Shown piece by piece: positions 6,261 to 53,800 of a stretch of 64,000 nucleotides of DNA. The notes below the pieces were generated by a model that was given only the letters and a program-made list of their open reading frames with translations, made no database searches and was not told the DNA's origin. Source of the DNA: an uncultured delta proteobacterium (lineage in GTDB: Bacteria > Myxococcota_A > Polyangia > Polyangiales > Polyangiaceae); contig CAWJCS010000003.1 of NCBI GenBank assembly GCA_963841435.1, positions 1 through 64,000 of the forward strand, read 5' to 3'. The position numbers and the translations under genes are program-made. Position 1 is the first letter of the stretch, and each line of letters starts with the position of its first letter.

Positions 6261-6261
6261 T

Positions 6262-6630: not shown

Positions 6631-6693
6631 GCCTGAATTGTAGGGGCGGATCTCGGCAAGCCCCGGCAGCGGGGAGGGACGAGCTTGCATGGT

Positions 6694-27478: not shown

Positions 27479-27540
27479 GGCAATTTCTCCTTCTTCGAAG
27501 CTAACGAGAGACAAGAACTTTCGATTGTCCCGGGCTCACG

Positions 27541-29495: not shown

Positions 29496-29699
29496 TGTGC
29501 CTCCGGGTGGCGTCGGGCCTCGGACCCGCGCGAAGCGCGACCACGCGCGGGGGAGCGCGTGAAGTCGATGACCTGGGGATTCGTCGTTTTCGAGCTCATG
29601 TTCGCTTGGGCCATGGCATCGCGAAGGCGCACGTCGGGCGTGCGCGCTCTGCGACGGCCGATCGTTTCGCGGTCGTCTCTGGAGCGTGGCTAACGAGGA

Positions 29700-31778: not shown

Positions 31779-31784
31779 ATCCGC

Positions 31785-33491: not shown

Positions 33492-33501
33492 GCCTTCGCC
33501 G

Positions 33502-34593: not shown

Positions 34594-34612
34594 TAGCGTT
34601 CTCCTTGTCGAT

Positions 34613-36044: not shown

Positions 36045-36140
36045 GATGACTCCAGAGGGGGAAGCACGGAACGATCATCGAGATGCGTCGCCGCACGATC
36101 AAGGGCGAAGGGGGTGGATCGTAGAGCGCCGCTCGTTGTC

Positions 36141-36305: not shown

Positions 36306-37909
36306 TCACTTGAGCTCATAGCCGAACTGCAGCTCGAAGAAGTGCAAGGGATCGCCAGCGGCGCCCTTGTCGGGTGACTTCGGAGTCCAGAAATCCTCGT
36401 TCGGCAGGAACACGCCGTAGAGCCCGCGGAGCGAGAAGCCCTTGCCGATGGCGTAGGCGACGTTGAAATCGATCTCCTCGCCGACCGCGCCGTGCTTGTG
36501 GTCCGCGCCGCGCTTGGGACGCGCGAAGTAGTGGCCGTCGAGCAGGAAGGTGACGGGCTCGATGGCGTATTTCACGTGCAGGACGCCGCTCAGCACGTTG
36601 GTGCGCGGCCCCATCACGTCCATCAAGCCGAGCCACTTGTGCGAGGTGGGGTAAAGCTCGTCGTAGCCTTCGTCCTCGTCGAGCGTGTTCACGTCGTCGC
36701 CCGAGGCGACGAGCCCCTCGAGCCCCACGCGAAAGCCGGCTGCCGGGAGCACGCCGATCTCGCCGTCTAGCTGGTACGCCGTCTTGCTCTTGGTGTCGGG
36801 TCGCGGCACCAAAAACGTCGGAGCGATCGGCTTCTTACCGAACTGGAAGCCGGCCTCGGCGCGATAGTCGACGATGGCGGCCTTGCCCTTGACGCGCGCG
36901 CCGAGCGTCGCCTCGGTCGCGGACTTCTGACGGCCGAGCGCGGTGCTCGTCGGGTCCATCGGATCGGCGACGACGACCTTGCTGTTCTTCTCGGGCGTGA
37001 GGAACAGGGCGTAGACGTCGAGGTCGTAGTCCTTCGCGACGAGCGGCCCGAGACCCGCGTAAACGCCGTAGAAATACGTATCGCCCGCGACGGGTTTCTG
37101 GGTGACCGAGCGCCCTTCGACGATGATCGAGCCGAACGCGTCGATGTAAAATGGCGTCTCGCTCGGCGTGAGGTGGAGGCGTGCGCCGTTGAAGGCGCGC
37201 GCCGCTTCGTTCCAGCCAAGATCGCCGATCACGAGCGCGTCGCCGTAGTTCATGGAAAAGCGTCCGGCATCGACGCGGTAGTGGTCGCTGCCGACGCTCG
37301 CATAACCCTCGTAGAGTTGGATCGGAGGGCTGTCGCTCACGGTCGGCGCCGCGCCGGCGTTCTCGCCCCACGTGTAGGCCGCCTGCGGCGCGACCGTCGC
37401 CGACACCGAGACGCCGTCGCCCACGTCGACGGGCGTCGTCTTCACGGTGAGACGCGCACGCGAGACGACGTAGTCGCCTTCGCGGTGCAGGCGCGGATGC
37501 GTGAGGCCGTGCTCCTGGTAGTTGTCACGCAGCTCGTAGCGGCTCCAGATCGATGCGCCGAGCTTGAACGGCCCCTCGGGGGGCGCTTCCGCGGCCGGGG
37601 CGGGCACAGCAGGCGCCGCAGCCGGAAGAGCGGGCTCCGGGGCGGCGGGTGCTTCTGGCGGCATGGCCGCGGGCGGCGGCGCTGGCTCCGCGACCAGAGC
37701 GGGCACGGCGGGGGTAGTGCCAGCAGCGGCCGGCGGCTCGGCCGCTGGCGGCGGCGCCGCGGGTGCCGCGGGCGCGGAGCCGGTGCCACCGTCGGAGGCG
37801 CCGCGGGAGCGGCCGGGACGGTCGGTGTCTGCGCGCCCGCAGCGCGCGCCGAGAGCACCAACGACAACAGCCCCTCGGCAACCACGATCGAGCGATGAAT
37901 TGGAAGCAA
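36306..37909 (-). CDS. Alginate-export-family outer-membrane porin; frameshift near 37776 in the Pro/Ala linker
   Basis: RYE, GRF...YGDALVIG..GWN...RAFNG, ASGDD, LYPTSHKWLGLMD. The signal peptide (TTG at 37909, RBS ggagg) lies in an adjacent frame. Confidence 0.85.
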
Positions 37910-38025
37910 CGAAGTTCCTCCAGGCGAGAAAGCGAATGGCTTTCGAAGCTCACTGTCGCCCGTGCGAACACGCGCGAACAATCCCCTCGGGACCCGATCT
38001 CACCGTGATTTTGGGTTCTCGGCTT

Positions 38026-38037
38026 GTTTCCGAAACG
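38026..38037. promoter_or_regulatory. Second copy of gtttccgaaacg, upstream of the porin
   Basis: Identical 12-mer to 36146-36157, at a similar distance (~100-120 bp) from the start codon. Confidence 0.4.
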
Positions 38038-38210
38038 ATCGCGCAATGCGCGTCGTCGAATCGAAACTCACTCCCCGGGGTGGATACGGCGGAGACACGT
38101 TCGTCGCCCTCCGTGCTCGCGCGAAACGTACGTCGATTCGCGCCCCACCACCCGACGCGAGACGCGCTCCATGCGCCGCGGAGCGCGCATCGATCACGGG
38201 CGCGGATGGC

Positions 38211-39698
38211 TCAATTCGGAACGATGCGGTCCGTGGGGTTCCAAAGGTACTGGACCCGGAACGTACCGTCGGCCGAAATCACGCTGCCCCAGACCGTCTG
38301 CGACGCCTGGTGGTTGGTGGACGAGAAGCTGAGGAGCGTGCCGATGCCGATGTCGAGGTTCTGCACGCGACCATCGAGTGTCTGCCGGAGCCGCTCGGTG
38401 TCGAGGGTGGGGCCGTTGAGCAGAAGCGCGCGCGTAAAAAGGCGTGCGGCGATGTAGCCCTCGAGCGAGGTGAACGAATAGTCGCCGCCGTCGAAGCGAT
38501 CGATGTCGGCGCGGTAGTCGGCCACGCCCTCGGCCTGCGTGTCGTAGTAGGGCACCACCTCGGTCACCATCACGCCCTCGGCGTAGCTTCGCTCGGTTCG
38601 TCCGTCGCGCACGTCAACGTAGCGCTCCGGGGGGCTCGTCAGGGCGTCGGCAAGCGCGTTGGAGCCGACGAACGAGACGTGCATGAACGCCAGATCGAGG
38701 CGTGTTGCGCGCTCGAGATCGGCGTTCACCCAGTCGAGCACGGCGCGGATGAATTTGTTGCCGGGCTGGTACGTGTCGACCATGACCACGCCCGCCGAGA
38801 GCAGCCCTGATTCGTCGCGCAGGAGGTCTTCGAGCACGCGCTCGGCCTCGACGATGGCAGGCCCCACGCTCTCGACGTCCTCGCGGTCGTAGTACAGACG
38901 CGCGATCGAGGGATCCGGCTTGGTCGAATCGGGCTGTGGCAGCGGCGAGAGCCGGTTGTAGGCGTTGACGAGGCCGCCGTAGCCGGCATCTCCGTAGCTG
39001 TCGCGCTGCGTGAACGCGATGACGTGGCGGTACGACTCGCCGGGCGGCGACGTGATGATGCGCGGCTGACGGTAGGTGGCCATGTAGTCGACCATGGCGT
39101 CCGTCTCCTGGTAGTAGCCGGCGCGGTAGTTGTAGACGTACGGCGAGTTCGTTCCGTCGCGCAGGTATTTTTGCGCGCCCGTGAAGGGCGCGAAAAAGAG
39201 CGTCTTGTTCTTCGTCGCCACGGGCGCCGTCTCGAGCATCGTGGGCGTGCCGATGTTACCGAGCAGCGCGAACACGGAATCCTTGCCGCGCACGTCGGGG
39301 GCGTCGGGGCCCGCGGCTTCCTCTTCGATGTCGAGCAGCGCCTTGGTGTTCTCGAGCGCGAGCGCGGGGTCGTAGTTGTCGTTCATACTGCGCAGCACGA
39401 GCTCGCGACCGAACACGCCGCCCTGGCCATTGACGCGTGAGAACAGGGCCAGGATGCCACGCCGCATCTCGATGCCGAGGTCCTGGCTCGGGCCCTGCAG
39501 CGGCCCGCTCATGCCGATGGTGAGCGGCTGATCGCCGGCGGCGATGCACGCCGAGCGCCCCGACACGCTGCCGCACACCTCGCCACCCGAGCAATCGGCG
39601 TCGCTGCGGCAGCTGAAGTGCGTGCCGCCGAGATCCGGCGACGAGCAGCCGAACGCGACGCCGAGCCACGCGAGGACGACGGAAGGACGCGAGAGCAC
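38211..39698 (-). CDS. Periplasmic binding protein type 1 (LivJ-like) lipoprotein with N-terminal Cys-rich module
   Basis: AFGC lipobox; IGMSGPLQG, NGQGGVFGREL, DNYDP, GNIGTP, YRAGY, EGYIAA. Confidence 0.87.
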   Translation of the reverse strand: MLSRPSVVLAWLGVAFGCSSPDLGGTHFSCRSDADCSGGEVCGSVSGRSACIAAGDQPLTIGMSGPLQGPSQDLGIEMRRGILALFSRVNGQGGVFGRELVLRSMNDNYDPALALENTKALLDIEEEAAGPDAPDVRGKDSVFALLGNIGTPTMLETAPVATKNKTLFFAPFTGAQKYLRDGTNSPYVYNYRAGYYQETDAMVDYMATYRQPRIITSPPGESYRHVIAFTQRDSYGDAGYGGLVNAYNRLSPLPQPDSTKPDPSIARLYYDREDVESVGPAIVEAERVLEDLLRDESGLLSAGVVMVDTYQPGNKFIRAVLDWVNADLERATRLDLAFMHVSFVGSNALADALTSPPERYVDVRDGRTERSYAEGVMVTEVVPYYDTQAEGVADYRADIDRFDGGDYSFTSLEGYIAARLFTRALLLNGPTLDTERLRQTLDGRVQNLDIGIGTLLSFSSTNHQASQTVWGSVISADGTFRVQYLWNPTDRIVPN

Positions 39699-39701
39699 GA
39701 C

Positions 39702-40568
39702 TCAGAAGCTCCCGAAGAGGGCGAGCGTGCCGCCCTCGGGGCCGGCGTCGAGCGCGACCGCGACGCTGCCGCGCTCGCCCGGCGTCTCGCGCCCGGCGCC
39801 CGTGAAGAAGAGCACGGCGGACGTGCCGACGAGCGCCCCGCCCAGGCCGAGACCGAGACCACCGAGCAGCTTCTTGGTATTGCCGGACCGCACGTAGCGT
39901 TCCGCCTCCGCTTCGGTCATGGGGTGAACGCCGTGGGGGTCGCCGTAGCCGGGGGCGCTCGTCACCTTGTCGTGATCGCGTGCGCCGAACACGTAGACGA
40001 CGGCGCCCGCAGCGGCGATGGCGACGCCGCCGCCGAGCGCCACCCACGGCAAGATGGCTCGCGCGCCGTGCCCGCTCGCCGGTGGCGCCGAGGGCTCGTG
40101 CGGCGCCCGGTCGGGCTCCGGCACGAACTCCGCGCGCGAGCGAAGCTCTTCGGCGCGCAGCCTTCGGAGCGCCGCGAGCGACGACTCGGCGCGCAGTCGA
40201 CCTTCGGCATCGGCACCGGGTGCTGCGACGAACGCCTCGTATTTCTCGATGGCCAGGCGCGTCTCACCGAGTCTTTCGTAACAGCGGCCGAGGTTGAAGA
40301 GCAGGTTCGAATCGTGATCGATGGCGTACGCTTCGACGAACTTCTCGATCGCGAGGCGATAGTCGCCCGCGGCGTAGTACGCCGAGCCGGCCTCGTTGAG
40401 CTCGGCGATCCGCGCGACGTCCGACGTCGCGGCGACGAGCCCCGGTGGCTTGTCCGCGGCACGGGCCGGGGGCGCGCCGAGCACCGCGAAAAGCACGACA
40501 CTCGTGACGAGGGGTAAAAGACGCGGGCAACGGTGCATGGTGGTCTCACGGCTGGGTGGCAGGGTCAT
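39702..40568 (-). CDS. Secreted TPR protein (kinase partner)
   Basis: Signal peptide; Y.AGDY..AI..F..AY...LLFNLGRCYE TPR; ends GSF; ATGA overlap with the kinase. Confidence 0.8.
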   Translation of the reverse strand: MTLPPSRETTMHRCPRLLPLVTSVVLFAVLGAPPARAADKPPGLVAATSDVARIAELNEAGSAYYAAGDYRLAIEKFVEAYAIDHDSNLLFNLGRCYERLGETRLAIEKYEAFVAAPGADAEGRLRAESSLAALRRLRAEELRSRAEFVPEPDRAPHEPSAPPASGHGARAILPWVALGGGVAIAAAGAVVYVFGARDHDKVTSAPGYGDPHGVHPMTEAEAERYVRSGNTKKLLGGLGLGLGGALVGTSAVLFFTGAGRETPGERGSVAVALDAGPEGGTLALFGSF

Positions 40569-42151
40569 TCGAGCAAGCGCGGGCGCTTTCGCTCCTCGAG
40601 CAGGTGCGCGCGCGGCGGGGCGGCCACGGCCGCATCGGTGGGCTTCGCCCCGGATGGCGCGACGGGCGGTGTGGGCTCCGACACCGCTGCGAGCGCGGCG
40701 CCCGTCGTGATGGTGCGACGCGGCGCGGGCGGTACCGCTCTTTGCGTCCGCTCGCGCGAGCGCGGCGGCGCTCGGTCGGCCTTGGGCTTCGAGCTCGGCT
40801 CGACGGCGGGTCGAGCCGGCGCGACGACGGGCGCCGCGCGGTCACGCTCGGGCGCCGTCGCACGCTCGGCCGCGGCGTGCCCGTTGACGCTCGTCGCCGT
40901 CGGCAGGGCGACCGGAGCGTTTGCGTCGGGCGCGGTGTGCGAGCCGCCGAGCGAGCGCATACCCAAGAATCCCGCGGCGAGCGCGAGCACCGAGGCGAGC
41001 ACGACCCAGAGGGCACGCGGCTTGGAGCGCGCCCAGCCTTGCTCGGGCTCGGCACCGAAGACGGTCGCGGGGACCGAGCTCTGGCCCGTCGCCATCCCGG
41101 CGACGGGCGTCAGCGGGGCGCTCGAGGGCGGCTCGCTCAGCAGGCTCGGGCGGCCGCGCAACACCGAGCTCGAGCGCTCGGCGTGCAATCGCGCCCGCGA
41201 CGGCGCGAACGGGAGGAGCGCGTTGGCGAGCTCGGCGGCATTCTGGAAGCGCTCCGCCGCCTCTTTTCTCAGGCAACGCTCGATGACGGCGGCAAGCTCG
41301 GGGGAAGCCCCTGCGCAATGCGCCGAAAGCACGGGTGGCGTCGCCTCGAGCACGAGCGCGCACACGGCGGTGACCGTCTCGCCCGCAAACGCCGGGCGCC
41401 CCGTGAGCAGCTCGAACAGCACGACACCGAGCGACCAGAGATCGGTGCGGTGGTCGACCTCCGTCGTGCCCCGGATCTGCTCGGGCGACATGTAGAGCGG
41501 CGTGCCCATCAGGCACGCGGTCTCGGCCACGTGGATCTCCTTGCCGAAGGGACGTGCAGCGAGGGCCGTTTTCGAAATGCCGAAGTCGAGCACCTTGACG
41601 ATGTCGAGGTCTCCACGGCGCGTGAGAAACAGGTTCTCGGGCTTGACGTCGCGGTGCGTGATGCCCGCCGCGTGCGCGAGAGCGAGCGCCTCGCACACCT
41701 GCATGACGTACTCGCTGGCTCGCCGCACGGAGAGCGGGCCGCCCTGCTGCAGCAGGGCCGCGAGGTTTTGCCCTTCCAGGTACTCCATCACCATGTACGG
41801 ACCGAGCGGCGGCGCCACGCCGACGTCGATCACCCTGACGATGTGCTCGCTACCGAGGTGCGCCGACGCCTTCGCTTCGCGAGCAAAACGCGAGAGCACG
41901 TCGGGCATGCGGTGCACCTCGGGCCGGATGCACTTGATGGCCACGAGCTCGTCGAGCTCGAGGTGGCGCGCCGCGAGCACGATGCCCATCGCACCCTCGC
42001 CGATGACCCGCTCGACCCGGTATTTGCCCGCAATCACCGCGCCCGGGAACGCATCCTCGGGAGGCGGTCCGAGGCTCCGCTCCACGCGCACACCGGTGAA
42101 CGATTCGCTCGCCCCGCTACCCACCCGCTCGACCAGCGGTGGAGCCGTCAC
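40565..42151 (-). CDS. Hanks-type Ser/Thr protein kinase with TM
   Basis: GEGAMG, VAIK, HRDVKPEN, DFG, YMSPEQ, DLWSLG; GTG start with RBS ggagg. Confidence 0.95.
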   Translation of the reverse strand: MTAPPLVERVGSGASESFTGVRVERSLGPPPEDAFPGAVIAGKYRVERVIGEGAMGIVLAARHLELDELVAIKCIRPEVHRMPDVLSRFAREAKASAHLGSEHIVRVIDVGVAPPLGPYMVMEYLEGQNLAALLQQGGPLSVRRASEYVMQVCEALALAHAAGITHRDVKPENLFLTRRGDLDIVKVLDFGISKTALAARPFGKEIHVAETACLMGTPLYMSPEQIRGTTEVDHRTDLWSLGVVLFELLTGRPAFAGETVTAVCALVLEATPPVLSAHCAGASPELAAVIERCLRKEAAERFQNAAELANALLPFAPSRARLHAERSSSVLRGRPSLLSEPPSSAPLTPVAGMATGQSSVPATVFGAEPEQGWARSKPRALWVVLASVLALAAGFLGMRSLGGSHTAPDANAPVALPTATSVNGHAAAERATAPERDRAAPVVAPARPAVEPSSKPKADRAPPRSRERTQRAVPPAPRRTITTGAALAAVSEPTPPVAPSGAKPTDAAVAAPPRAHLLEERKRPRLLE

Positions 42152-42405
42152 GCGCCCACCTCCGATCCGCGACCTTGCCCGGACCCTCGGCACGCTTGCA
42201 TGGGGATACTTTCGCACTCGCGGTGTGACCGAAAAATGCGTGGTTCGGCAATTGACTCGTGATGCGCGCTCACGAATCAGCGCCGCGCGGTTCCCGAAGC
42301 GGTGCACGGGCGCCGAAACTTCGCAGAACCGGCGCCTCGCCCCACCCCCTTCGGACCTTTTCGACGACGCGGCGCGACGCCGTCGCTCGGCAGCGCGAGC
42401 GGCGC

Positions 42406-42864
42406 CTAGCGGACCGCTTCGGGAAGCCGGCGGACGGCGCTTTCGACGGCGGCCTGCAGGGCGGCGTCGCGGGCGGCGGCGAGATCGGTGCCGGACTCTT
42501 CGGCGGTGGCATGGCCGTTGAGCACGGCGTGGAGCACCTGGCCGCGAGCGCGGCAGAGCACGAGCGAGACGGCGGCGGTCGCGCGCACGGACGCGCTGTC
42601 TTTTTCGCCGTCGAGCCGCTCGAGCGTCGCGCTCAGCACGAAGCGCTCGCCTGCGCGGGCGACGGGCATTTTTTCCACCTCGCGCTCGAGCGCCCGTCGC
42701 AGCGCGGGCACGAAGGGGCCCGCGGGAGCGTTGGCACGCACCTCGCCGAGCGAGACCGCCGACTGGCCCGCCCGCGTGGCGGGCGCGAGGGCGAGAACGG
42801 AGACGATCAGGCCGGGCATGAGCCGGCGGCGGACGGACGTCGAGATCGACGCGGCTTGCGCCAT
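42406..42864 (-). CDS. Hypothetical secreted protein
   Basis: Strong RBS aaggaggtg, signal-like N-terminus, 152 aa. Confidence 0.6.
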   Translation of the reverse strand: MAQAASISTSVRRRLMPGLIVSVLALAPATRAGQSAVSLGEVRANAPAGPFVPALRRALEREVEKMPVARAGERFVLSATLERLDGEKDSASVRATAAVSLVLCRARGQVLHAVLNGHATAEESGTDLAAARDAALQAAVESAVRRLPEAVR

Positions 42865-43034
42865 GAGTCACCTCCTTGTCGCGGCGGAGCAGGGGCAGCG
42901 ATCGATCCGCGCGCGAACCGTGAGTGCCATGGGCTCGACACCGACGCCGAGCCGTCCGGATGGGCTATCAGGGCCGGAGCAACCGGGCCAAATTCGCGCT
43001 CACGCCGCGCACACCTTCGATAAGCTCGCGCGGT

Positions 43035-45266
43035 TCACGCCTGATCGCGTGGCTCGAGCTTGCGGACGCGAACGGCGGAGTACTTGTAGGACGGCTGACG
43101 GGAGAACGGGTCGAACGCCGGGAACGTGAGCTGGTTGGTCGTCGCGTAGTGCATGGGCATGAACACCTGGCCCGGGCCCACGACATGCGTCGGGTGCGCG
43201 CGTGCGCGGAGCTTGCCGCGCTTCGACTCGACGATCACCCATTGTCCGGGGACGATGCCGAGGCGCTCGCTGTCTTCGGGGCTGAGCTCGACGTAGGGCT
43301 CGTTGGCGTAGAGGCGGCGGAGCACCGCGGATTTCGCGGTGCGTGTCTGCGTGTGCCACTGGCTCGACGAACCGCGCCCCGTGAGCAGGATGAACGGAAA
43401 GGCCTCGCTCGTGGCTTCCGGGACGGGGCGCGGCGCATCGAAGACGAAGCGCGCCTTTTTGTCGGGGAAGAAGAAGCGTCCGTCAGCGAACAGCCGGCGC
43501 TGGCTCTGCGCGACGACGTGCTGACCTTCGGCGAGCGGCCACTGCACGCCGCAGAGCTCGTCGAGCGCCGCGTAGTCGGCGATGCCCATGATGTCGCAGG
43601 GTCTATCCTTCGAAAGCTCCTTCATGAGCTGAAACGTCGCTTCGGGATCCGAAAAGCGACGAAAGAGCTCGCCGACGCCCCACGCTTCGGCGAGGAGCTT
43701 GATGATGTAGAAATCCGAGAGCGCCTCGCCCGGCGCGCGGGAGACTTTCTTGAGCAGCCCGTAGCGGCGCTCGGAGTTGATGAAGGTGCCTTCCTTCTCG
43801 CCCCAGCCCGCGGCCGGCAAGACGAGGTGCGCATGCGCGGCCGTTTCCGTCGTCGCGTACATGTCTTGCACGACGAGAAAATCGAGGCGATCGAGCAAGT
43901 CATGGGCGTCGTTCTGGTTGATCCAGGAATGCGCAGTGTTGGTGGCGACGACCCAGAGCCCGCGGATTTTCCCGCTCAGAATGCCCTCCATGATCTGGTC
44001 GTACGCGAGGCTCGGGCGATCCGGAATGCGCTCGACGGGAATGCCGAGGATGCGCGCGACCTCGGCGCGGTCGTCCGCGTCTTCGAAGGCGCGGCCGCCG
44101 AGCAGGTTCGTGGTGTTGCTGAACAGGCGCGAGCCCATGGCGTTGCACTGGCCCGTGATCGAGTTCGGGCCCGTGCCGGGGCGGCCGATGTTGCCCGTCA
44201 TGAGGCACAGGTTGATGAGCGCCTGAGCGACGCGCACGCCTTCGTGGCTCTGGTTCACGCCCATCGTCCACCAGATGCTCACGCGCTTGCCCTGGCCGAC
44301 GAGCTCAGCGAGCCGTCGGATGGCGTCGCCGTCGAGGCCCGTCGCCTCCACGGCGCGTTCGATGGTGTACGGCTCGACGTGCGCGGCAAACTCGTCGAAA
44401 CCGGCGGTGTGCGCGTCGACGAAGGCTCGGTCGACGAGACCACGCGCGATGAGATGCCGCGCGACGGCGTAGAACAGGACGAGGTCCGATTTCGGCCTGA
44501 GCGGCAGGTGCAACGTGGCCGCCATGGCCGTTTCGGTGCGGCGCGGGTCGATCACCACGATTTCGGGGTGGTGGGGATTGCGCGTCACGCGCTCCCACAG
44601 GATGGGGTGGGCGATAGAGAGGTTCGAACCCACGAGCACGATGACGTCCGACTGCTCGAAGTCCTCGTAGGTGTACGGCGGCGCGTCGAAGCCGAATGCT
44701 TCCTTGTACGCGACGACCGCCGTCGCCATGCACTGGCGCGTGTTGCCGTCGCCGTGCACGACGCCCATGCCGAATTTCGCGAAGCTGCCTAGCAGCGCGA
44801 GCTCCTCGGTCGGCATCTGTCCGGTACCGAGGAAGGCGACGCTTTCGGGACCGTGCTCGGAGAGAATCCCCCGGAACCGCGTCACGAACGTCTCGAGCGC
44901 GGTCTCCCAGCTCACCTTTGCGAGCACGCCGCGCGCGTTTCTGAGCATCGGGTGGAGCGCACGATCGTCGGCGGCGAGCGGCGTGAGCGCTTCCCAGCCC
45001 TTCGGGCAGGCCATACCCCAATTGACCGGGTAGTCGCGCGACGGCGAGAGGCCGACGGCCTCGCCATTCTGGAGGTGGATCTCGAGACCGCAGCCCGTCG
45101 AGCAGTAGCCGCACACGGCCGTCGTCGTCGCGTCCGGCTTCTTCGCGTTCGGCACTTGACCGAGGCCAAAGCCGCCCGGCGTCCGTACGAGCTCGGCGGT
45201 GAGCGGACCCGTTCGCTGATGGATCAGCGAAAGCGCCTTCTTCGCGAGGTCCTTGGGCGCGCTCAC
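43035..45266 (-). CDS. nasA: Assimilatory-type nitrate reductase catalytic subunit (NasA/NarB, Mo-bisMGD)
   Basis: CGYCSTGC...CPKG [4Fe-4S]; NTRQCMATA Mo ligand; [21 protein letters not shown]; no Tat signal. Confidence 0.92.
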
Positions 45267-47038
45267 GGACCGACCGCTCCGGGCATCTTGGGCGCCGAGA
45301 GCGCTCGAAAGAACAGCACGCGCTCGAATGTCTCACCCCCGAGCAAAAACACCCACGCGGCGAGCGACAGCACGACGAGCTCGCCACTCGACGGCTCGTC
45401 CGCGCGCCAGGTCCCGAGCACGACGAGCACGCCGAGCGCGCCCAACACGAGCCTCGCCGTCGCAGGCGCGCGCAACTCGCCGACGAGCAACAGCGCCGTG
45501 CGCCTGAGCTCACCGAGCCCACGCTCGCGAAGGTGCAGGAGGATCTCGGCGTCCGTGAGCAGCTTGACGAGGGCGAACCAAAACAGCGGCCCGAGGAGCG
45601 CCTGCGCCGCACCCACGGCCGCGTGCGGGACGGCACCGAGCAGGCCGAGCACACAAAGCGTGACGATCGTCGTGGAGAGGCCGAGCACGGCGCCGGTGGA
45701 CACGAAGCGCGCGCTCGTCCGCACGGTGCTCCACCACGCACGGTGTGTCACCTGATAGAGCATCATCGAGGCGAACACACCGAGGGCGCCGCTCGCCGCG
45801 ACCACCCAGCCGAGCGCGGCGCGCAGCCCGCCGAGCACGGCCGCGTCGGGCAGCTCGATACCGGCGCGGGCCGCGAGCGGCTCGAACCAGAACGACGACG
45901 CGTAGACGACGGCGCTCCCCGCGAACAGGCCGAACGCCGCCGCTTCGCGGCTCATCCACGACGTGCGGATGCCGAGCACCGCGCGAAACGCGTACGCGGG
46001 GCGCCCGAGGTGAAAGACGCTCGCGCCGAGCGCGAGCAGGCCCATGGCGAGCGCGACGAGGGAGCGGTACGGCCGCCCGGTTTCGCCGCCGCCCGCGACG
46101 AGCGCATCGACGAGAAGGTCGACGGCGAAGGTACCCACCGAGAGCTGCGTGAGCACGAGCAAGGCGACGAGCGGCGAATGCGAATGCGAGCTTCGGACGC
46201 GCTGGAAATCGGCGGGCAGCGTGTTGCGCGGCAACGGGCGGCGCGACACGTAGTTCGTCGTCGGCACGGTGATGTTCGGCGACGGTGCGCCCGGCAAGAA
46301 GGCCTCCCCTTTCGCGTCTTCGAGCACGCGCTCTACTTCGACGATGCGAATCGAGATGGCGCCGTTCGGACAGGCTTGCACGCAGGCCGGCGCCTCGCCC
46401 ACGGCGAGCCGGTCGCTGCACATGTCGCACTTTCTCACGATGCCGCGCTTCTTGCTGAACTGCGGCACGTCGTACGGGCAGGTGAAGGTGCAGTATTGGC
46501 AACCGATGCACTGGTCGTCCAGGTGCTTCACGATGCCGGTCACGGCGTCCTTCTCGTACGCGCCCACCGGGCAACCCTTCATGCAGCCCGGGTCGAGGCA
46601 GTGGTGGCAGGCCGTCGTCACGGTTTGTTGCACGGGCTCGGTGGCGGTGCCGCCGTGCAAGAGGCCCACGCTGCGCCAGGTCTCGCCCTCGTCGTCGTCG
46701 AGCCCGTTCAGCTGGTGGCACGCCGTGACGCACGCCTTGCAGCCCGTGCACGCGTCGAGGTCGACCTCGAAGGCGAGCTGCTCGCCCTGCTTGGGGCGCG
46801 TGAGTGGCACGAAATCCTCGTAAAAGCGTGCGTCGGGACCGAGCGCTTCGGCGTCGTGGCGCTGCGCGAAGCGCTCGACGGCCGTGAGCCGCGCCTGCTC
46901 CTCGAGGTATTGCGCGACGAGCGGCAACCGCCGACGCGAGCGCGACTCGCGGGCGGACGGCGGAGCGAGCGACGACGCGTCGGAAACCATCGGGGAGCTC
47001 GCAGCCGTTTCGTGGACGCCGAGCGTCACGCCGGGCAC
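45263..47038 (-). CDS. Fused DmsB-like 4x[4Fe-4S] and DmsC-like membrane anchor
   Basis: [35 protein letters not shown]...CVQAC; LTQLSVG, HLGRP, SWMSRE, ER..FF; multiple TM. Confidence 0.9.
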
Positions 47039-50000
47039 GCCATCTCCGCGAGCTTGATCGGTACGAGCTGCCCGACCTCGCGAACGTTCGGGAGATCGAC
47101 GAGCACGAAGCCGTTTTCCACCTTCACGGGGAAAGTGCGAATGCGATACGGGTCGCCGCTCAGGCAGTCGCCGCTCTTCAGCGAGAACGTCTTCTTGTGC
47201 TGCGGGCACGCGATCTTCGGCTCTCCCTTCTGATCGCCGAGGATGCCCCGCGAGAGCACCATGTCCTTCATGTGCGGGCAGAGGTTCTGGCTGGCGTACC
47301 ACTCACCGCGAGAGCTGAAGTTGTAGACGGCAATCTGCGCCTCGCCGTAGCGTACGGCCACGCCGCCGTCCTTCGGGAAATCCTCCACGCGGCCGACCTT
47401 GACCCAGCTCGTCTGAATGAGCGGCAGGTGCAGGCGCGAGCGCACCTTGGCCGGCTCGTCGTCTTTCCAGTCGCGCGGGCGTTTCTGGCCGCGCTGGTCG
47501 ATGAGCTCGACGCTGTCGTCGTGCTCGCCCGTGTTCGCATAGTGCTTGAAGCGGGCGCGCTTCTTCGGGTCACGCACGACCTCGGCCCATTCGCACTTGT
47601 AGGTGTCGACGAGAAACTGCATCTGGCGCTCGAGCTCGTCGGCAATACCGAGCCGGTCGTGAATCACGACGGCACGCAAGTATTCGATGCCACCCTCGAG
47701 CTTCTCGAACCACGTCGCCGTACGCGTCAGTCGGTCGGCGGTGGCGATGTAGTACATCAAGAAGCGGTCGATGTATTTGATGACCGTCGCTTCGTCGAGA
47801 TCGGCGGCGAGCAGCACGGCGTGCTTGGGCTTCATGCCACCGTTACCGCACACGTAGAGGTTCCAGCCCTTCTCCGTGGCGATCAGGCCGAAGTCCTTGC
47901 CTTGTGCTTCGGCGCATTCCCGGATGCAGCCGCTCACGGCGGACTTGAGCTTGTGCGGGGCGCGCAGCCCTTTGTAGCGATTTTCGACGCGGATCGCGAA
48001 GCCCACCGAGTCCTGCACGCCGAAGCGGCACCAAGTCGTGCCGACGCAGCTTTTCACGGTCCGGACGGCCTTGCCGTAGGCGTGTCCGCTCTCGAAGCCC
48101 GCGTTGACGAGCTCCTCCCAGATGTCGGGCAGCTGGTCGACACGCGCACCGAAAAGGTCGATGCGCTGCCCGCCCGTGATCTTGGCGTAGAGGCCGTACT
48201 TTCTGGCGACCTCACCGAGCACGATCAGCTTCTCGGGCAAGATCTCGCCGCCGGGGATGCGTGGCACGATCGAGTAGAGGCCGCCGCGCTGGATGTTCGC
48301 GAGAAAGCGGTCGTTCGTGTCCTGGAGCGTCGCATGCGGCTCCTCGAGGATCATGTCGTTGTAGAGCACCGCGAGAATCGATGCCACGGCGGGCTTGCAG
48401 ATCTCGCAGCCGTTGCCGGTACCATGCGAGCGCAAGAGCTCGTCGAACGTGCGATGGCCCTTGATCTTGAGGACCTCGTAAAGCTCTTGGCGCGTGAGCG
48501 CGAAGTGCTCGCACAGGCCCTCGCGGACGATCTGGCCCGCGGCCTTGAGCTCGGCCTTGAGGATGTCGGTGACGAGCGGCATGCAGCCGCCACAGCCCGA
48601 GCCCGCCCGCGTCTTGCTCTTGATCTCGCTGACCGTCGAGCATTCGCCACGCCGGATCGCGTGGCAGATCTGTTGTTTCGTGACGTTGTTGCACGAGCAA
48701 ACCTGGGCCGATTCGCCGAGCCCCGCGCTCGCCGATTGGCCCTCGCGGGCACCGAAAATGAGCTCTTCCGGATTGTCGGGCAGCGTCTGATCGCTGCGCA
48801 TCACCTGCGTGAGGCGCGTGTAGTCGGCCGCGTCGCCCACGAGGATGCCGCCGAGGAGCTTCGTGCGATCCTCGCTGACGACGAGCTTCTTGTAGACACC
48901 CTTGACGAGGTCTTCGTAGAGGATGCTCGCGCCGCCCGTCGCGTCGGCGAACGGGTCACCGAAGCTTGCCACGTCGACGCCGAGGAGCTTGAGCTTGGCG
49001 GAGAGGTCGCTGCCCTGGTACTTTGCCGACGCGTCGCCCACGAGGTTTCGCGCGAGCACCGTCGCCATCTCGTAGCCAGGAGCGACGAGACCGTAAACGA
49101 CGTTGTCGTAGAGCGCGCACTCGCCCACGGCGCGCACGGTCGGGTCACTCGTGCGCAGGTGATCGTCGACGACGATGCCACCGCGGTCGCCCACCTCGAG
49201 ACCGGCCTCGCGCGCCAGCTCGTCACGCGGCCGGATACCGGCCGCCACGATGAGCAGATCGGCCTCGAGCGGGTCGCCCTCGCTAAACTCCACGCCTTCG
49301 ACCGAGCGGTCGCCGAGCACGCGCTGCGCCGCGAGATTCAGGTGCACTTGCACGCCGAGGGCCTGAATACTGCGGGTCAAGAGGCGCGCGCCCGCGCCGT
49401 CGAGCTGGCGCGGCATGAGACGCGGAGCGAACTCGACGACGTGCGTCTCGAGCCCTAGATCGTGCACGGCCTTGGCGGCCTCGAGGCCGAGCAAACCGCC
49501 GCCGAGCACGACGGCACGCTTCGCGCGCTTTGCATGCTCGCGAATCCCGACGAGATCTTCGATGGTGCGGTAGACGAAGACGCCCGCCTTGTCGACGCCG
49601 GGGATGGGCGGAACGAACGGCATCGACCCCGTCGCGAGCACGGCGACGTCGTACGGCACCCATTCGCCGCTCGACGAGCGCACCGCGCGGCGCTTGCGAT
49701 TGAGCTCGACGGCGCGTTCGCCGAGCAGCACGCGAATCCCGCGCTCCTTGTACCAGTCGAGGCCCGCGAGCAAAAGCTCGTCGGCGCCCGACTTTTCGAA
49801 GAAGCTCGTGAGCGCCACGCGATCGTACGCCGGGCGTGGCTCCTCGCAGAAGGTGACGACCTGGTAGCGGCGTTCAGTGTCGAGCTCGCTGATGCGCTCG
49901 CACACTTTCCAGCCGACCATGCCGTTGCCGACGACGACGATCGTCTGCCGAGCGGCACCGCCTGCGCGGGGCGGCGCTGCGGGCTTTTCAGAGCCGCGCG

Positions 50001-50829
50001 CCTCGAGCACCGCGGCGCCGTTCGTGACCTGGGATCCGACGAATATTCGAATCATTTCGGCCGGTTGTGGGCGCACAAACAGCGAGCGCGCCGGGCTTTC
50101 GTCGACGCGGATACCGTGCTGCCGGAGCGCGAGATCCACCGCGGCGCCGAGCGCAACGACGCGCAACTTGCCGAGCGCCACGCGAAGCTCTCCCGTGGCA
50201 CCGCGCACACAAGCGATCTCCCAGACCCGTTCGAACTGCGCGGGCGCGCTCCACACGACGGCGTGCACGCTCGCGTCGAGGATGCGCTCGAACAGCTCGA
50301 GGGCGGCCTGGTCGGACGCCATGGACTCGGAGAGCAGTCGAACCGTCGCCCCCTTCTTCTCGAGCAGCTCGAGCAGGCGCACGTCCGGATTGAGAGACGC
50401 GACGCCGATCACGCGGCCCCGGAGATCGTGGTCGTCGAGCGCGCCGCTCACGCTCTCGAACGATGCGAGCGGCGCGGCGATGTCCGCTTTGAGGCCGAGC
50501 TCGCGAAGCGCGAGCGCCGGCTTCGGACCCTGCGTGATCTTTCGCACGACACGCAGTGCATCGAGCACTTCCTCCTCGCGCTCGAGCTCGCGCGCGTACT
50601 CGACGATGAGCCGCACGCTCTGCGCCGTGAACATGATCATGTCGTCGAACTGGCGTTCGTAGAGGTCGACGATCCAGCTCTCGAGCGGGCGCGCGGCCGT
50701 GCCGACGGGCTCGAGAGAAAATCGAGTTAAATCGCCACCTTCGTGACGGATCAGCCGCGCGGCGGCATCGAGATCCGACGCTTCGGGAAGGACGATGTGC
50801 AAACCTGAAAATACACCAGTACTGGCCAT
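47026..50829 (-). CDS. nirB: NAD(P)H nitrite reductase: HemD-like N-terminal domain + NirB + NirD Rieske, fused
   Basis: N-terminal FT..S..., GPKP..ALRELG HemD-like motifs; GNGMVG, CSC/CGGC, CEH/CEIC, CVGTTWC, SGCIREC; C-terminal CPH...CPQH. Alternative ATG at 50850. Confidence 0.93.
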   Translation of the reverse strand: MASTGVFSGLHIVLPEASDLDAAARLIRHEGGDLTRFSLEPVGTAARPLESWIVDLYERQFDDMIMFTAQSVRLIVEYARELEREEEVLDALRVVRKITQGPKPALALRELGLKADIAAPLASFESVSGALDDHDLRGRVIGVASLNPDVRLLELLEKKGATVRLLSESMASDQAALELFERILDASVHAVVWSAPAQFERVWEIACVRGATGELRVALGKLRVVALGAAVDLALRQHGIRVDESPARSLFVRPQPAEMIRIFVGSQVTNGAAVLEARGSEKPAAPPRAGGAARQTIVVVGNGMVGWKVCERISELDTERRYQVVTFCEEPRPAYDRVALTSFFEKSGADELLLAGLDWYKERGIRVLLGERAVELNRKRRAVRSSSGEWVPYDVAVLATGSMPFVPPIPGVDKAGVFVYRTIEDLVGIREHAKRAKRAVVLGGGLLGLEAAKAVHDLGLETHVVEFAPRLMPRQLDGAGARLLTRSIQALGVQVHLNLAAQRVLGDRSVEGVEFSEGDPLEADLLIVAAGIRPRDELAREAGLEVGDRGGIVVDDHLRTSDPTVRAVGECALYDNVVYGLVAPGYEMATVLARNLVGDASAKYQGSDLSAKLKLLGVDVASFGDPFADATGGASILYEDLVKGVYKKLVVSEDRTKLLGGILVGDAADYTRLTQVMRSDQTLPDNPEELIFGAREGQSASAGLGESAQVCSCNNVTKQQICHAIRRGECSTVSEIKSKTRAGSGCGGCMPLVTDILKAELKAAGQIVREGLCEHFALTRQELYEVLKIKGHRTFDELLRSHGTGNGCEICKPAVASILAVLYNDMILEEPHATLQDTNDRFLANIQRGGLYSIVPRIPGGEILPEKLIVLGEVARKYGLYAKITGGQRIDLFGARVDQLPDIWEELVNAGFESGHAYGKAVRTVKSCVGTTWCRFGVQDSVGFAIRVENRYKGLRAPHKLKSAVSGCIRECAEAQGKDFGLIATEKGWNLYVCGNGGMKPKHAVLLAADLDEATVIKYIDRFLMYYIATADRLTRTATWFEKLEGGIEYLRAVVIHDRLGIADELERQMQFLVDTYKCEWAEVVRDPKKRARFKHYANTGEHDDSVELIDQRGQKRPRDWKDDEPAKVRSRLHLPLIQTSWVKVGRVEDFPKDGGVAVRYGEAQIAVYNFSSRGEWYASQNLCPHMKDMVLSRGILGDQKGEPKIACPQHKKTFSLKSGDCLSGDPYRIRTFPVKVENGFVLVDLPNVREVGQLVPIKLAEMACPA

Positions 50830-51186
50830 GCGCGCGGACCTCACCGCCATGGGTCTTACCCGCTGATGCGAACCGGAAGCGCGACGGTCGTGCTCGGCTT
50901 TCGGTGTTCGCGACTCTGACTATTCAGTGTACGCGACCGGAAAAGTGCGTCAACGCGCAAACGGGGGCTCGCAGCGCCGGGAATCGACGTCCAGAATCTC
51001 GGGTGAAATGCACATGAAATGGCGAAACGCTACCGACACACGAGTTTACAATCGAGAAACGAACCGGAGGGCACGGAGCTTTCCTGAAACGGGAGCGCTC
51101 GGTGCGGTCACGACTCGGTGCAGTCACGAATGAGCTGAGGCGTTCGCGGCCACGCGCTAGCGGGCGCGCGCCAGCGCCCTCGACGC

Positions 51187-51450
51187 TCAGCCGCCGGACA
51201 CGGGCGGGAGGAGCGCCACTTCGTCCCCAGCGGCGATGCGCGCGTCGGGGCCGGCAAGCTCCTCGCCGACCGCCACGCGAACCGCTCCCAGCACGCCACG
51301 CAGGGCCGGCCGGATCGTCGGGAGAAAGGCCAGGAGCTCGGCGACGCGAGTCACCCCCTCGGGCAGCGTGATCACCTCGCCGTCGCTCCCTAGGCGCTCC
51401 CTGAGCGCGGCAAAGTAGAGGAGCTTGATATGCCGTTCGCCAGAGACCAC
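51187..51450 (-). CDS. moaD: Molybdopterin synthase sulfur carrier subunit
   Basis: LLYFAALRE...GDEVALLPPVSGG C-terminus. Confidence 0.93.
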   Translation of the reverse strand: MVSGERHIKLLYFAALRERLGSDGEVITLPEGVTRVAELLAFLPTIRPALRGVLGAVRVAVGEELAGPDARIAAGDEVALLPPVSGG

Positions 51451-51466
51451 GCTCGCCTCGTAGCAC

Positions 51467-52009
51467 ATGACCGCGTCGCACGCCCCGAGCAGCCCGACCC
51501 ACGACGCCGTGCGCGTGCTCACCGTGACGGTGAGTGATTCGCGGGCGGCGGCAGACGACGAATCCGGCGCTCGCCTTCGCGACTTGCTCACCGCGGGGGG
51601 CGTCATGCTCGTCGAGCATCGGTTGATTCCCGACGAGCCCGAGCAACTGAAGGCCATCTTGCGCGAGGTCGCCGAACGCGACCTCGCCGATGCGGTCATC
51701 AGCACGGGCGGCACGGGCATTGCCCCGCGGGACAGGACGATCGAGGCGCTCGATGCCCTCTTCGAGAAGCGTCTCGATGGTTTCGGCGAAGCGTTCCGGC
51801 GCCTGTCGTGGGACGCGATCGGACCGCGCGCCGTGCTGTCGCGCGCCGTCGCGGGGGTGGTCGAGGGTCGTTTCGTCGCCGCGCTGCCGGGAAGCCCGCG
51901 TGCCGTCGAGCTTGCCGTGAGCGCCGTGCTCTTGCCGATCCTCGAGCATGCCGTGGGCCTTTTGCGAGGACGCGCGCACCAGCACGGCCACGGATCGGGC
52001 CACCGATGA
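51467..52009 (+). CDS. moaB: MogA/MoaB molybdopterin adenylyltransferase
   Basis: TVSD...DESG, IPDE, STGGTG..PRD.T.EA, LSRA, LPGSP. Confidence 0.9.
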   Translation: MTASHAPSSPTHDAVRVLTVTVSDSRAAADDESGARLRDLLTAGGVMLVEHRLIPDEPEQLKAILREVAERDLADAVISTGGTGIAPRDRTIEALDALFEKRLDGFGEAFRRLSWDAIGPRAVLSRAVAGVVEGRFVAALPGSPRAVELAVSAVLLPILEHAVGLLRGRAHQHGHGSGHR

Positions 52010-53223
52010 GCGATCTGCTTTCGTTCCAGGCGGCGCGCGCCGCCGTGCTGCGCGACGTCATGCGGGTCGCTGCGGAGCGAGTGCCGCTCGCCGACGCGCT
52101 CGGTCGCGTGCTCGCCGAGAGCGTCGTCGCGAACGGGCCGCTCCCACCGTTTTCCTACAGCGCCATGGATGGCTACGCCGTGGCGGCGGACGCGCTGACG
52201 GGCGCGCCGCCGTGGGAGCTCGTCGTGAGCGGCGAAAGCCGGACGGGTCACCTGCCCGAGCGCTTCGTGCCGGGCACGAGCTGTCGCATCTCGACGGGCG
52301 CGCGCATTCCAGTGGGCGCCGACGCGGTCGTGCCCGTGGAGCTCGTCGAGGAGCGCGGCGAGCGGATCCGGCTGTCCGTCGTGGTCAAGGAGGGCCAGCA
52401 CGTGCGCCCGGCGGGCCAGGATCTCGCCGCGGGAGCCGTCGCGCTCGAAGCGGGCGAGCGCCTCGGGGCGTCCGCCCTGGGGCTCGCGGCGTCGCTCGAC
52501 CGGACGGAGCTCTCGGTGGCGCGGCAGCCACGCGTCGCCATTCTCGCCACGGGCGACGAGCTCCGCGCGGCCGGGGCAGCACCGCGCCCCGGCTCGATCC
52601 CCGACAGCGTCTCGCTGCCGCTGGCGGCGCTCGCGCGGCAGGCAGGAGCGCGGCCGCACATCGTGGGCCCGGTACCCGACGATCGGGCGGCGACGGAGCA
52701 CGCGGTTCGCGCGGCGCTCGAGGGGTCCGACCTCTTGCTCACCGTCGGTGGCGTGAGCGTGGGACGCCACGATTGGGTGCGACCCGCGCTCGAGGCAGAA
52801 GGCGTGAGCATCGAGTTTCATGCCGTCGCCATCAAGCCGGGCAAGCCCCTCACCTTTGGTCGGCGCGGCAAGGACGGGCCGATGGTGCTCGCCCTGCCCG
52901 GGAATCCGGCGAGCGCGCTCGTCACCTTCGCCCTCTTCGGCATGCCGCTGGTCCGGGCCATGCAGGGCGACAAGCGACCGCTGCCCCGCACGCTCGTTTT
53001 GCCTCTCGCGACGCGTGCCCACCACAAGCCCGGAAGACTCGAGTTTCTGCGCGCACGTCTCGAGCTTGGCGACGACGGGCTCATGGTCGCCCCGCTCGCC
53101 AATCAGGCCTCGGGAGCGCTGACGAGCCTCGCCTGGTCGGACGCTTTCGCGCTCTTGCCGGCCGACGCCGAGGAGCTCGCGGCCGGCACGCCCATCGAGG
53201 TCGTGACGTTCGCCGACCTCTGA
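52006..53223 (+). CDS. moeA: Molybdopterin molybdotransferase
   Basis: PPF..SAMDGYAV, ISTGA, TGDEL, GGVSVG, IKPGKP, LPGNP. Confidence 0.95.
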   Translation: MSDLLSFQAARAAVLRDVMRVAAERVPLADALGRVLAESVVANGPLPPFSYSAMDGYAVAADALTGAPPWELVVSGESRTGHLPERFVPGTSCRISTGARIPVGADAVVPVELVEERGERIRLSVVVKEGQHVRPAGQDLAAGAVALEAGERLGASALGLAASLDRTELSVARQPRVAILATGDELRAAGAAPRPGSIPDSVSLPLAALARQAGARPHIVGPVPDDRAATEHAVRAALEGSDLLLTVGGVSVGRHDWVRPALEAEGVSIEFHAVAIKPGKPLTFGRRGKDGPMVLALPGNPASALVTFALFGMPLVRAMQGDKRPLPRTLVLPLATRAHHKPGRLEFLRARLELGDDGLMVAPLANQASGALTSLAWSDAFALLPADAEELAAGTPIEVVTFADL

Positions 53224-53257
53224 GCGTGCCGACCGCTTTCGCGCGGCCAGATGCGCG

Positions 53258-53800
53258 CTAGTCGCCCGCGTCGTTAGGGTGCGCGTGGTCGGCGTGAGCG
53301 TGCTCGTCGGCGGCGCAGCGAGCGTCCTCCCAGCCGACCCAGTACGGGCCGTCGGGGCCGTGCTCGCGCTTCCAGATGGGCACGCGCTCCTTGACCCGAT
53401 CGATGGCGGCGCGGCATGCCCGGAACGCCTCGCCCCGGTGCGGCGCGCTCGCCGCACACACGACGGCGATGTCCCCCACCGAAAGCGCCCCCACGCGGTG
53501 GAAGATGCACAAGAGCACACCCGGGATTTCGCGCTCGAGCTGGTCGCGGATGCGCCCCATCTCCGCGCGCGCCATGGAGGCGTAGGCCTCGTACTCGAGC
53601 AGTGTCACCGCGTGGCCGTCGTTCGTGTCGCGAACGGTACCGAGGAACGTGACGACGGCCCCGGCCCCCGGGCGGCGCACGGAGGCGACCGCGCGATCGA
53701 CGGACAGCTCGCCGCCGAAGAGCGCCACGAGCTCCGGTGCCCCGGCGTCGGACGGCGATGTAACGGCGTCGGACGGCGATGTAACGGCGTCGTCCGTCAT
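53258..53800 (-). CDS. moaE: Molybdopterin synthase catalytic subunit
   Basis: GAVVTFLGTVR, LEYEAY, HRVG.L, SAPHRGEAF, K..VPIWKRE. Confidence 0.94.
   Translation of the reverse strand: MTDDAVTSPSDAVTSPSDAGAPELVALFGGELSVDRAVASVRRPGAGAVVTFLGTVRDTNDGHAVTLLEYEAYASMARAEMGRIRDQLEREIPGVLLCIFHRVGALSVGDIAVVCAASAPHRGEAFRACRAAIDRVKERVPIWKREHGPDGPYWVGWEDARCAADEHAHADHAHPNDAGD
53743..53792. repeat. 21-bp tandem repeat (2.4 copies) in the moaE N-terminus
   Basis: cggcgtcggacggcgatgtaa x2 plus a partial copy; encodes DAVTSPS repeats. Confidence 0.85.

Follow-up and report, generated by a model that had tools for sequence, protein, structure and literature searches.

A uroporphyrinogen-III synthase-like domain at the front of a NirB-NirD nitrite reductase in Polyangiaceae, a candidate non-catalytic ligand-binding module

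The subject of this study is a single gene, here named hemD′-nirB-nirD, found in a 64,000-nucleotide stretch of DNA from an uncultured delta proteobacterium (Polyangiaceae; assembly GCA_963841435.1, contig CAWJCS010000003.1, positions 1 to 64,000), which is referred to as the window throughout. Listing of the open reading frames (ORFs) and scans with Pfam and NCBIfam models revealed that the nitrite-assimilation enzyme of this soil myxobacterium is a single long chain with an extra HemD-like domain, HemD′, at its front. We lean towards the view that the chain is a working NirB-NirD enzyme and that HemD′ is a non-catalytic descendant of uroporphyrinogen-III synthase (U3S), which would bind a carboxylate-rich ligand and aid cofactor acquisition or the control of the enzyme. 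The gene and its parts are the following:

47026..50829, minus strand: hemD′-nirB-nirD coding sequence, 1267 amino acids plus stop; the frame runs on to a non-conserved ATG at 50850
50044..50829, minus strand: HemD′ domain, residues 1-262, predicted two-lobed U3S fold, Pfam HEM4
50323..50337, minus strand: clade-specific five-residue deletion site, residues 165-169, LLSES, where relatives have (V/A)PY(x)Y
49945..50043, minus strand: linker, residues 263-295, low complexity, Ala/Pro/Gly-rich and variable in sequence
47566..49941, minus strand: NirB part, with flavin adenine dinucleotide (FAD)/NAD(P)H module, Rubredoxin_C-like domain, two BFD-type [2Fe-2S] motifs and siroheme/[4Fe-4S] domain
47095..47409, minus strand: NirD Rieske-like domain with CPH and CPQH motifs, TIGR02378 and Rieske_2

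The original prediction, made from the letters alone, had placed an uninterrupted HemD-NirB-NirD frame at 47026..50829, and both the coordinates and the description proved to be right. The longest open frame spans 47026..50850 on the minus strand (1274 residues) and its translation is free of stops. Translation likely starts at the second ATG, at 50829, because the relatives begin with MAxxG(V/L)FS, the database copy of the window protein (P0002) has 1267 residues, and the ATG at 50850 is not conserved, being ATC in two related loci (L004 and L005). Pfam residue positions are counted below from the ATG at 50850, and those of HemD′, the linker and the deletion site from the ATG at 50829. The families that had been proposed for a profile scan were all matched in Pfam: HEM4 at residues 33-251 (43.1 bits, gathering cut-off 27.5), Pyr_redox_2 at 303-583, NIR_SIR at 926-1066 and Rieske_2 at 1148-1251 (89.6 bits). 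In addition, Rubredoxin_C was found at residues 618-686, Fer2_BFD as two stretches and NIR_SIR_ferr at 854-915. The NCBIfam model for NirB (TIGR02374) was covered in full, 1-794 of 794 positions, with 1062.9 bits against a cut-off of 578.35, and that for NirD (TIGR02378) scored 108.6 bits against 74.65. Two GxGxxG motifs (VVVGNGMVG and VVLGGGLLG) and the Cys clusters are visible in the translation of the NirB part. Judged by these domains and motifs, the NirB and NirD parts appear to hold everything that a working NAD(P)H-nitrite reductase needs. Joined in one chain they would make up an assimilatory enzyme in which electrons pass from NAD(P)H to FAD, on to [2Fe-2S] and then to [4Fe-4S]-siroheme, where nitrite would be reduced to ammonium. 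Neither Trans_reg_C nor a response-regulator family was matched in the fusion protein with Pfam and NCBIfam, its C-terminus being NirB-NirD, and TP_methylase, NAD_binding_7 and Sirohm_synth are not among the 11 Pfam families matched in it.

The architecture is shared by many relatives, for which P-numbers denote protein clusters or their representatives, and L001-L010 the loci obtained by a profile search of genome contigs with the N-domain. In a word-indexed protein search, residues 1-300 matched 16 clusters at 90% identity, all 1250-1275 residues long and all with the HEM4, NirB and Rieske families; the N-domains of the 15 non-self clusters are 58-73% identical to that of the window. A later protein search added four more divergent triple fusions (P0174-P0177), with 33-35% identity to the window in the N-domain and 61-64% in the NirBD part, so that clusters with the full architecture total 20. 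The search of genome contigs matched 40 stretches, of which 11 were confirmed, giving 10 loci, nine from Polyangiaceae and one from an uncultured delta proteobacterium. A complete, uninterrupted fusion ORF of 1267-1270 residues is present in L001, L002, L004, L005 and L006, all from metagenome-assembled genomes (MAGs) of Polyangiaceae, while L003 and L007 are interrupted by contig ends and share their synteny with the five complete loci. The order of the genes is kept: moaA, moaC-moaE, moeA-moaB (divergent), moaD, the fusion, a DmsB/DmsC-like gene and a NasA-like gene.

It might be argued that the fusion is an artefact of misassembly or of a lost stop codon, or that HemD′ is a decaying remnant, and HemD′ is indeed the least conserved folded part of the protein (61-64% against 78-83% amino acid identity to the five loci). 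We nevertheless hold this to be highly improbable. Five complete loci, independent of one another, and 20 protein clusters have the identical uninterrupted frame, by which the artefact half of the argument is refuted. Across all of these the linker drifts in sequence (26-38% amino acid identity to the five loci), yet its frame stays open, and for this reason a frameshift or a missed stop at the junction (approximately 49945-50043), whose soundness the original prediction had proposed to confirm with reads, is excluded without them. Ratios of non-synonymous to synonymous substitution rates (dN/dS), calculated by the method of Nei and Gojobori for the pairs with the window and for three locus-locus pairs, are used here for their ranking alone, since the strong bias in GC content at third codon positions (GC3) compresses dS: 0.33-0.93 in the linker (0.35-0.93 in the window pairs), 0.08-0.38 in HemD′ (0.31-0.38 in the window pairs), 0.11-0.35 in the FAD module and 0.05-0.23 in the BFD and siroheme part. 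HemD′ thus lies well under the linker and remains under purifying selection, and the GC3 of 0.80 in frame also speaks against an artefact or a remnant.

Structure prediction and profile comparison indicate that the N-domain descends from U3S and has kept the two-lobed fold. An AlphaFold2 model built from an eight-sequence alignment has a mean predicted local distance difference test (pLDDT) score of 84, and the 11 rows listed for it by Foldseek up to rank 12 are all U3S structures (Thermus, Shewanella, two from Pseudomonas and human; best E value 5e-13), at template modelling scores of 0.30-0.43, low values that fit a hinged two-lobe protein. A profile search of PDB sequences matched the U3S of Thermus thermophilus (E 3e-5), and a search of the same sequences with the single N-domain sequence gave chance-level matches alone (E approximately 0.85). 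Among 1.84 billion representatives a profile search found 879 proteins at E <= 1e-3, 256 at <= 1e-10 and 23 at <= 1e-30, and the best 150 of the 879 are mostly 270-295 residues long. Thirty of these 150, namely the long ones and the top short ones, were scanned with Pfam. HEM4 was accompanied by Pyr_redox_2 and Rubredoxin_C alone in four (P0025, P0029, P0033 and P0043; 674-782 residues), by Rieske_2 (NirD) in one that keeps the Tyr loop described below (P0038, 408 residues), by the N-part of siroheme synthase in one (P0143) and by URO-D in two (P0146 and P0166); a DNA-binding domain was matched in none of the 30. P0021 (550 residues) carries a loop-bearing HEM4 domain in tandem duplicate. The window domain misses the curated NCBIfam cut-offs for U3S, with 52.7 bits against 273 (PRK07239) and 51.1 against 233.

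The feature that sets HemD′ apart is a deletion of five residues. For the alignment (MAFFT) 105 of 178 domain rows were used, those that span profile positions <=65 to >=235, the shorter rows being dropped. The "PY" loop is deleted in 29 of the aligned domains and kept in the other 76, of which 72 have Tyr at the deletion column; the window has Ser there, and the U3S of T. thermophilus aligns LMPYRH at this site. In a quick tree of all 105 rows, in which the loop columns were left in and gaps treated as missing data, the deletion set forms one side of a single branch, with a Shimodaira-Hasegawa-like approximate likelihood ratio test (SH-aLRT) value of 99. A careful tree of 40 rows gave the HemD′ clade an ultrafast bootstrap value of 100 and an SH-aLRT value of 99; it comprised the 29 HemD′ rows (including P0174-P0177, L007, L009 and L010) and 11 outgroup rows, three further intended outgroups having been dropped for short coverage. 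Several positions that are near-fixed in loop-bearing rows are altered or variable in HemD′, namely G69-E70 (T-G-E-G), Q144, T194-S195 (F-T-S) and G228, and G101 and a basic residue at 103 are retained. In the careful tree triple fusions occur in all three HemD′ subclades, mixed with short and flavin-only forms, and because of this spread the joining to a NirB-type flavoprotein would seem to date back to the origin of the clade. The short forms look derived, or else are fragments.

On these sequence data HemD′ most likely no longer makes uroporphyrinogen III. We infer the loss of catalysis from the lost loop, and ligand binding from the fold that was kept and constrained; the ligand would most plausibly be carboxylate-rich, for example a tetrapyrrole of the siroheme branch. 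Bound in the HemD′ cleft, it might help the enzyme to acquire its cofactor or tune its activity, in a regulatory or a chaperone-like manner. The non-catalytic reading is favoured because the deletion is clade-wide and removes a Tyr loop kept in 72 of 76 other domains, near-fixed positions are changed or relaxed, the scores lie far under the curated U3S cut-offs, and clade members occur fused to the flavin half alone or as stand-alone proteins outside nitrogen loci. There is also a precedent. The HemD domain of the actinobacterial regulator NnaR is reported to be catalytically inactive and was proposed, or speculated, to be a tetrapyrrole sensor (PMC6277429, PMC11162112). The original prediction had likewise favoured a degenerate, non-catalytic sensor. 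In that choice we concur, on grounds firmer than the motifs that had been quoted for it (PEAS, FTAQS and WSAPAQ, all present in the translation), namely the loop deletion, the relaxed positions, the low scores and the contexts of the clade members. For the other possibility raised there, an enzyme that channels its own cofactor precursor, nothing was found in support.

The main rival interpretation, which we judge unlikely, is that HemD′ is a still active U3S and the fusion a 'Rosetta-stone' co-expression device feeding the siroheme branch alongside nitrite reductase. The HEM4 match above the Pfam cut-off, the kept fold and the purifying selection would all agree with this. Moreover, HemD-family genes recur beside nirBD: nirB, nirD and a gene annotated as 'uroporphyrinogen-III synthase' lie operon-like on plasmid P1 of Deinococcus gobiensis, a U3S-like gene adjoins nirD in six Deinococcus records among the matches listed, and P0038 is a fusion of NirD and HEM4 in which the Tyr loop is kept. 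On the other side stand the deletion at the Tyr loop, which defines the entire clade, the relaxation of other near-fixed positions and a score of 52.7 bits against a cut-off of 273. HemD′ also evolves faster than the enzyme part, as seen in the deep comparisons with P0174-P0177, and some clade members exist without a siroheme domain and outside nitrogen loci. Siroheme stays with its enzyme as a bound prosthetic group; a synthase fused 1:1 to its user would therefore presumably gain little, and tying a catalyst in this way to a protein that holds its cofactor tightly would be wasteful.

How much can be read from the lost tyrosine deserves caution. We take the aligned Tyr to be the one mutagenised in U3S, a candidate for the loss of the hydroxymethylbilane hydroxyl. 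A review describes mutagenesis as pointing to a possible active-site Tyr in U3S, and the same review states that none of the active-site residues of U3S is known to be essential (PMC7242693), so that the loss of the Tyr loop is no proof of lost activity. This is the first of several points that weigh against a non-catalytic HemD′. The first two strand-to-helix loops (FTAQG and GP(K/R)) are retained and are compatible with substrate binding. The loop-bearing comparison group, whose own activity is assumed, also falls under the NCBIfam U3S cut-offs (P0053: 162.1 against 273). Some short clade members may be fragments: the sequence of P0024 breaks off within the flavin domain, and P0043 is encoded on a contig of 2.8 kb. 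No separate canonical hemD was found in the 64-kb window, to which the search was limited. Finally, an NnaR-type ORF of Nocardia keeps the Tyr, while NnaR is reported to be inactive in Streptomyces coelicolor; Tyr is therefore an unreliable marker in either direction. Its weakness as a marker, together with the restriction of the search for a second hemD to the window, is what keeps an active synthase under consideration. A complex prediction for HemD′ (residues 1-262) and the FAD/NADH module (292-690) gave a score of 0.00 (mark 0.32) and is used as evidence neither way.

Some members of the clade lie outside nitrogen loci. L008 (7956-9989), on a 462-kb contig, encodes a 677-residue protein of HemD′ and a flavin module, the first GxGxxG motif of which is degenerate (GRSAAA), and the protein may be a non-catalytic derivative. 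Its neighbours are genes for methylmalonyl-CoA mutase, an ABC-F ATPase, a phosphoesterase, a class IV aminotransferase and OmpA, with no nitrogen genes among them. L009 and L010 encode stand-alone HemD′ proteins of 298-299 residues; in L010 the HemD′ gene stands between a preceding gene for a Ser/Thr kinase and a following one for an FHA-domain protein, and L009 shares the FHA and aminotransferase neighbours with L010. Since flavin-only and stand-alone forms thus occur in loci unrelated to nitrogen, the HemD′ clade is tied neither to the siroheme domain nor to nitrogen loci. As for the loop-bearing domains, no nitrogen genes were found around a relative on an Azospirillum plasmid, and the loop-bearing group therefore has no general tie to nirBD either.

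A further peculiarity of these proteins is found at their C-terminal ends. Fourteen of the 20 distinct triple fusions end in -AE (nine in -AAE and five in -GAE), and an -AAE end is present in four of 156 other fetched proteins, all four of them members of the HemD′ clade. The tails were seen in P0006-P0017, P0020, P0026, P0031, P0033, P0174 and P0176 and in loci L001-L006, L009 and L010. Of the 201 coding-like ORFs found in the window and L001-L010, 12 have an -AE end: six fusions, two stand-alone HemD′ proteins, three NarK-like transporters encoded directly after the fusion gene, and one IS66 transposase. A Cys a few residues before the C-terminal end is also common. In the AlphaFold2 model of the stand-alone L010 protein the mean pLDDT is 73, that of the block with the last eight residues is 31, and residues 285-298 are below 50. 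The codons of the tail differ among genes, so it is not a DNA motif.

Such tails raise the thought that HemD′ is a protein- or peptide-docking or an oligomerisation module, for example for the -AAE ends, instead of a small-molecule sensor. The counts and the differing codons point in this direction. Set against them, the window protein keeps HemD′ yet has no tail, its end (47026-47040) reading ...EMACPA, two codons short of the ...EMACPAAE of L005, and because these Polyangiaceae genes are related by descent, the counts from which the suggestion is drawn come out too high. We consider docking quite improbable. A broader possibility, to which we give only limited credence, is an unrecognised family of enzyme-derived binding domains, in which a catalysis-free U3S clamshell would read a siroheme-branch tetrapyrrole or -AAE tails. 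If this were true, HemD′ in NirB would gate cofactor loading, electron entry or partner assembly, and the forms found next to kinase and FHA genes, whether stand-alone or flavin-only, would serve other pathways. NnaR would then represent a second, independent use, and a general link between the HemD fold and the control of nitrite assimilation would emerge.

Returning to the fusion itself, its locus is one of nitrate assimilation, with a NasA-like reductase, genes of an Nrt-like ABC transporter and genes of molybdenum cofactor biosynthesis. The link to nitrite assimilation that had been drawn in the original prediction is borne out. The features around the gene are the following:

51187..51450, minus strand: moaD, ThiS-like and ending in GG, directly upstream of the fusion; ThiS lies at the C-terminal end of the ORF 51187..53520, in a conserved coding block
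51005..51090, minus strand: five (G/A)TTTC repeats upstream of the promoter-like site, with invariant GTTTC blocks in 7/7 aligned loci
50926..50953, minus strand: promoter-like site, TTGACG, 16-nt spacer and TACACT, approximately 95 nt upstream of the start
45263..46990, minus strand: one gene for a DmsB-like 4Fe-4S ferredoxin and a DmsC-like multi-helix membrane anchor (Fer4_11, DmsC), downstream of the fusion
43035..45266, minus strand: NasA/NasC-like molybdopterin nitrate reductase (Molybdopterin, Molydop_binding, Molybdop_Fe4S4), its start overlapping the preceding stop

A consensus scan gave one match for the promoter-like site against a mean of 0.3 in shuffles, and the seven aligned loci show no variation in CGTTGAC or in the second hexamer's core. 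The (G/A)TTTC repeats, which lie between moaD and the fusion gene, are a candidate array for the binding of a regulator. No family was matched in an Rfam scan of 26000-58000. The start of the DmsBC-like gene was set at the first Met past the nirD stop; its product reaches 129.6 bits with the NCBIfam model DMSO_dmsB, under the cut-off of 214.1, and is 69-75% identical in L001-L006. The NasA-like protein scores 466.7 bits with NasA and 417.4 with NasC, each under the equivalog cut-off, and no twin-arginine signal is visible in its sequence. The identity of the DmsBC-like and NasA-like pair in L001-L006 is 69-78%, and their arrangement suggests that a cytoplasmic nitrate reductase of the assimilatory type is connected to the quinol pool of the membrane, which would be unusual. 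In L001 (11683-13131), L002 (11808-13157) and L003 (3655-5115) a transporter of the NarK family, of the major facilitator superfamily, is encoded between the fusion and the DmsBC-like gene, scoring in L001 293.7 bits against a cut-off of 311.7; neither the window nor L004-L006 have the gene in this position.

Farther downstream on the same strand, genes for a Ser/Thr kinase (768 residues), a TPR protein, a Peripla_BP_6 protein and an Alginate_exp-type porin occupy 36306-42871, between nasA and the nrt genes. They are followed by an NMT1_2 (NrtA-like) binding protein at 34596-36074 and a double ABC ATPase at 31788-33524. A protein of 694 residues at 29703-31784 covers the first approximately 464 positions of the NirB model (Pyr_redox_2 and BFD), without a siroheme domain or HemD′, and beyond it lie a multihaem cytochrome c (28185-29699) and a globin (27068-27535). 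Near the start of the window there are an IS66-family transposase at 854-2506 on the plus strand and a DUF4062 protein at 5376-6692 on the minus strand.

We thus regard the protein as a known enzyme with a new accessory domain, the nearest functional analogue of which, NnaR, is itself unexplained: the NnaR papers present the role of its HemD-like domain in nitrite assimilation as an open question (PMC6277429, PMC11162112). That no HemD fusion of this kind was known, as the original prediction had it, stands in so far as no describing paper was found in the literature searched, which comprised titles and the beginnings of abstracts outside subscription journals, but the fusion itself is already in public databases. 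There it is hidden by its names, since all ten source-given names for triple fusions (8 + 2) are nitrite reductase large subunit or NirB. The opposite error threatens the loop-less domains, which risk being named as U3S, and one source has already given this name to two short proteins related to the clade; such misnaming bears on the reconstruction of haem and siroheme pathways from MAGs. More generally, a HemD fold is here coupled to nitrite reductase for a second time, independently and by a tighter physical link, placed on the enzyme itself, so that a single purified protein, compared with a version that lacks the domain, would allow both binding and activity to be measured.

Comparison with known systems places the fusion as follows. 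In NnaR of Actinobacteria, which combines a HemD-like with an OmpR-type DNA-binding domain and regulates nirBD, narK and nasA, a domain of the U3S family has likewise been recruited to nitrate/nitrite assimilation. NnaR is, however, a transcription factor, whereas the fusion protein has no Trans_reg_C. The NnaR-type ORF of Nocardia farcinica (L013 8176-9603, NZ_LN868939.1), with a HemD-like domain and a winged helix, is a further loop-bearing HemD-family gene beside nirBD; it keeps the loop as VPVYRW and reaches 20 bits against the HemD′ profile and 600.5 bits on PRK07239, on which the window domain has 52.7. The comparison with NnaR made in the original prediction is therefore apt as an analogy but not as kinship, and judging by the sequences the recruitment of HemD was independent and took place in a different phylum. 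The product name of PRK07239 is 'uroporphyrinogen-III synthase' though the NnaR domain is reported to be inactive, which makes this model a likely source of over-annotation. All domains of the E. coli-type NirB and NirD are present in the fusion above cut-offs and in the same nitrate-assimilation context; the fusion differs by having NirB and NirD in one chain and by the 262-residue U3S-fold domain and the linker at its N-terminus. NirB-NirD fusions as such exist elsewhere, as in fungal nitrite reductase. In the Deinococcus clusters and in P0038 a HemD-family gene is physically linked to nirBD, as it is in the fusion, but the Tyr loop is kept and the genes are separate or fused to NirD, not to NirB; all of them fall outside the HemD′ clade, P0038 by its position in the 40-row tree. 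The bifunctional HemD enzymes (P0146 and P0166 with URO-D, and P0143) similarly have HEM4 fused to a protein of tetrapyrrole metabolism. These are enzyme-enzyme fusions of consecutive or branch steps in which Tyr is kept, whereas in the window fusion HemD′ has lost the Tyr loop and is joined to the protein in which the cofactor is finally used.

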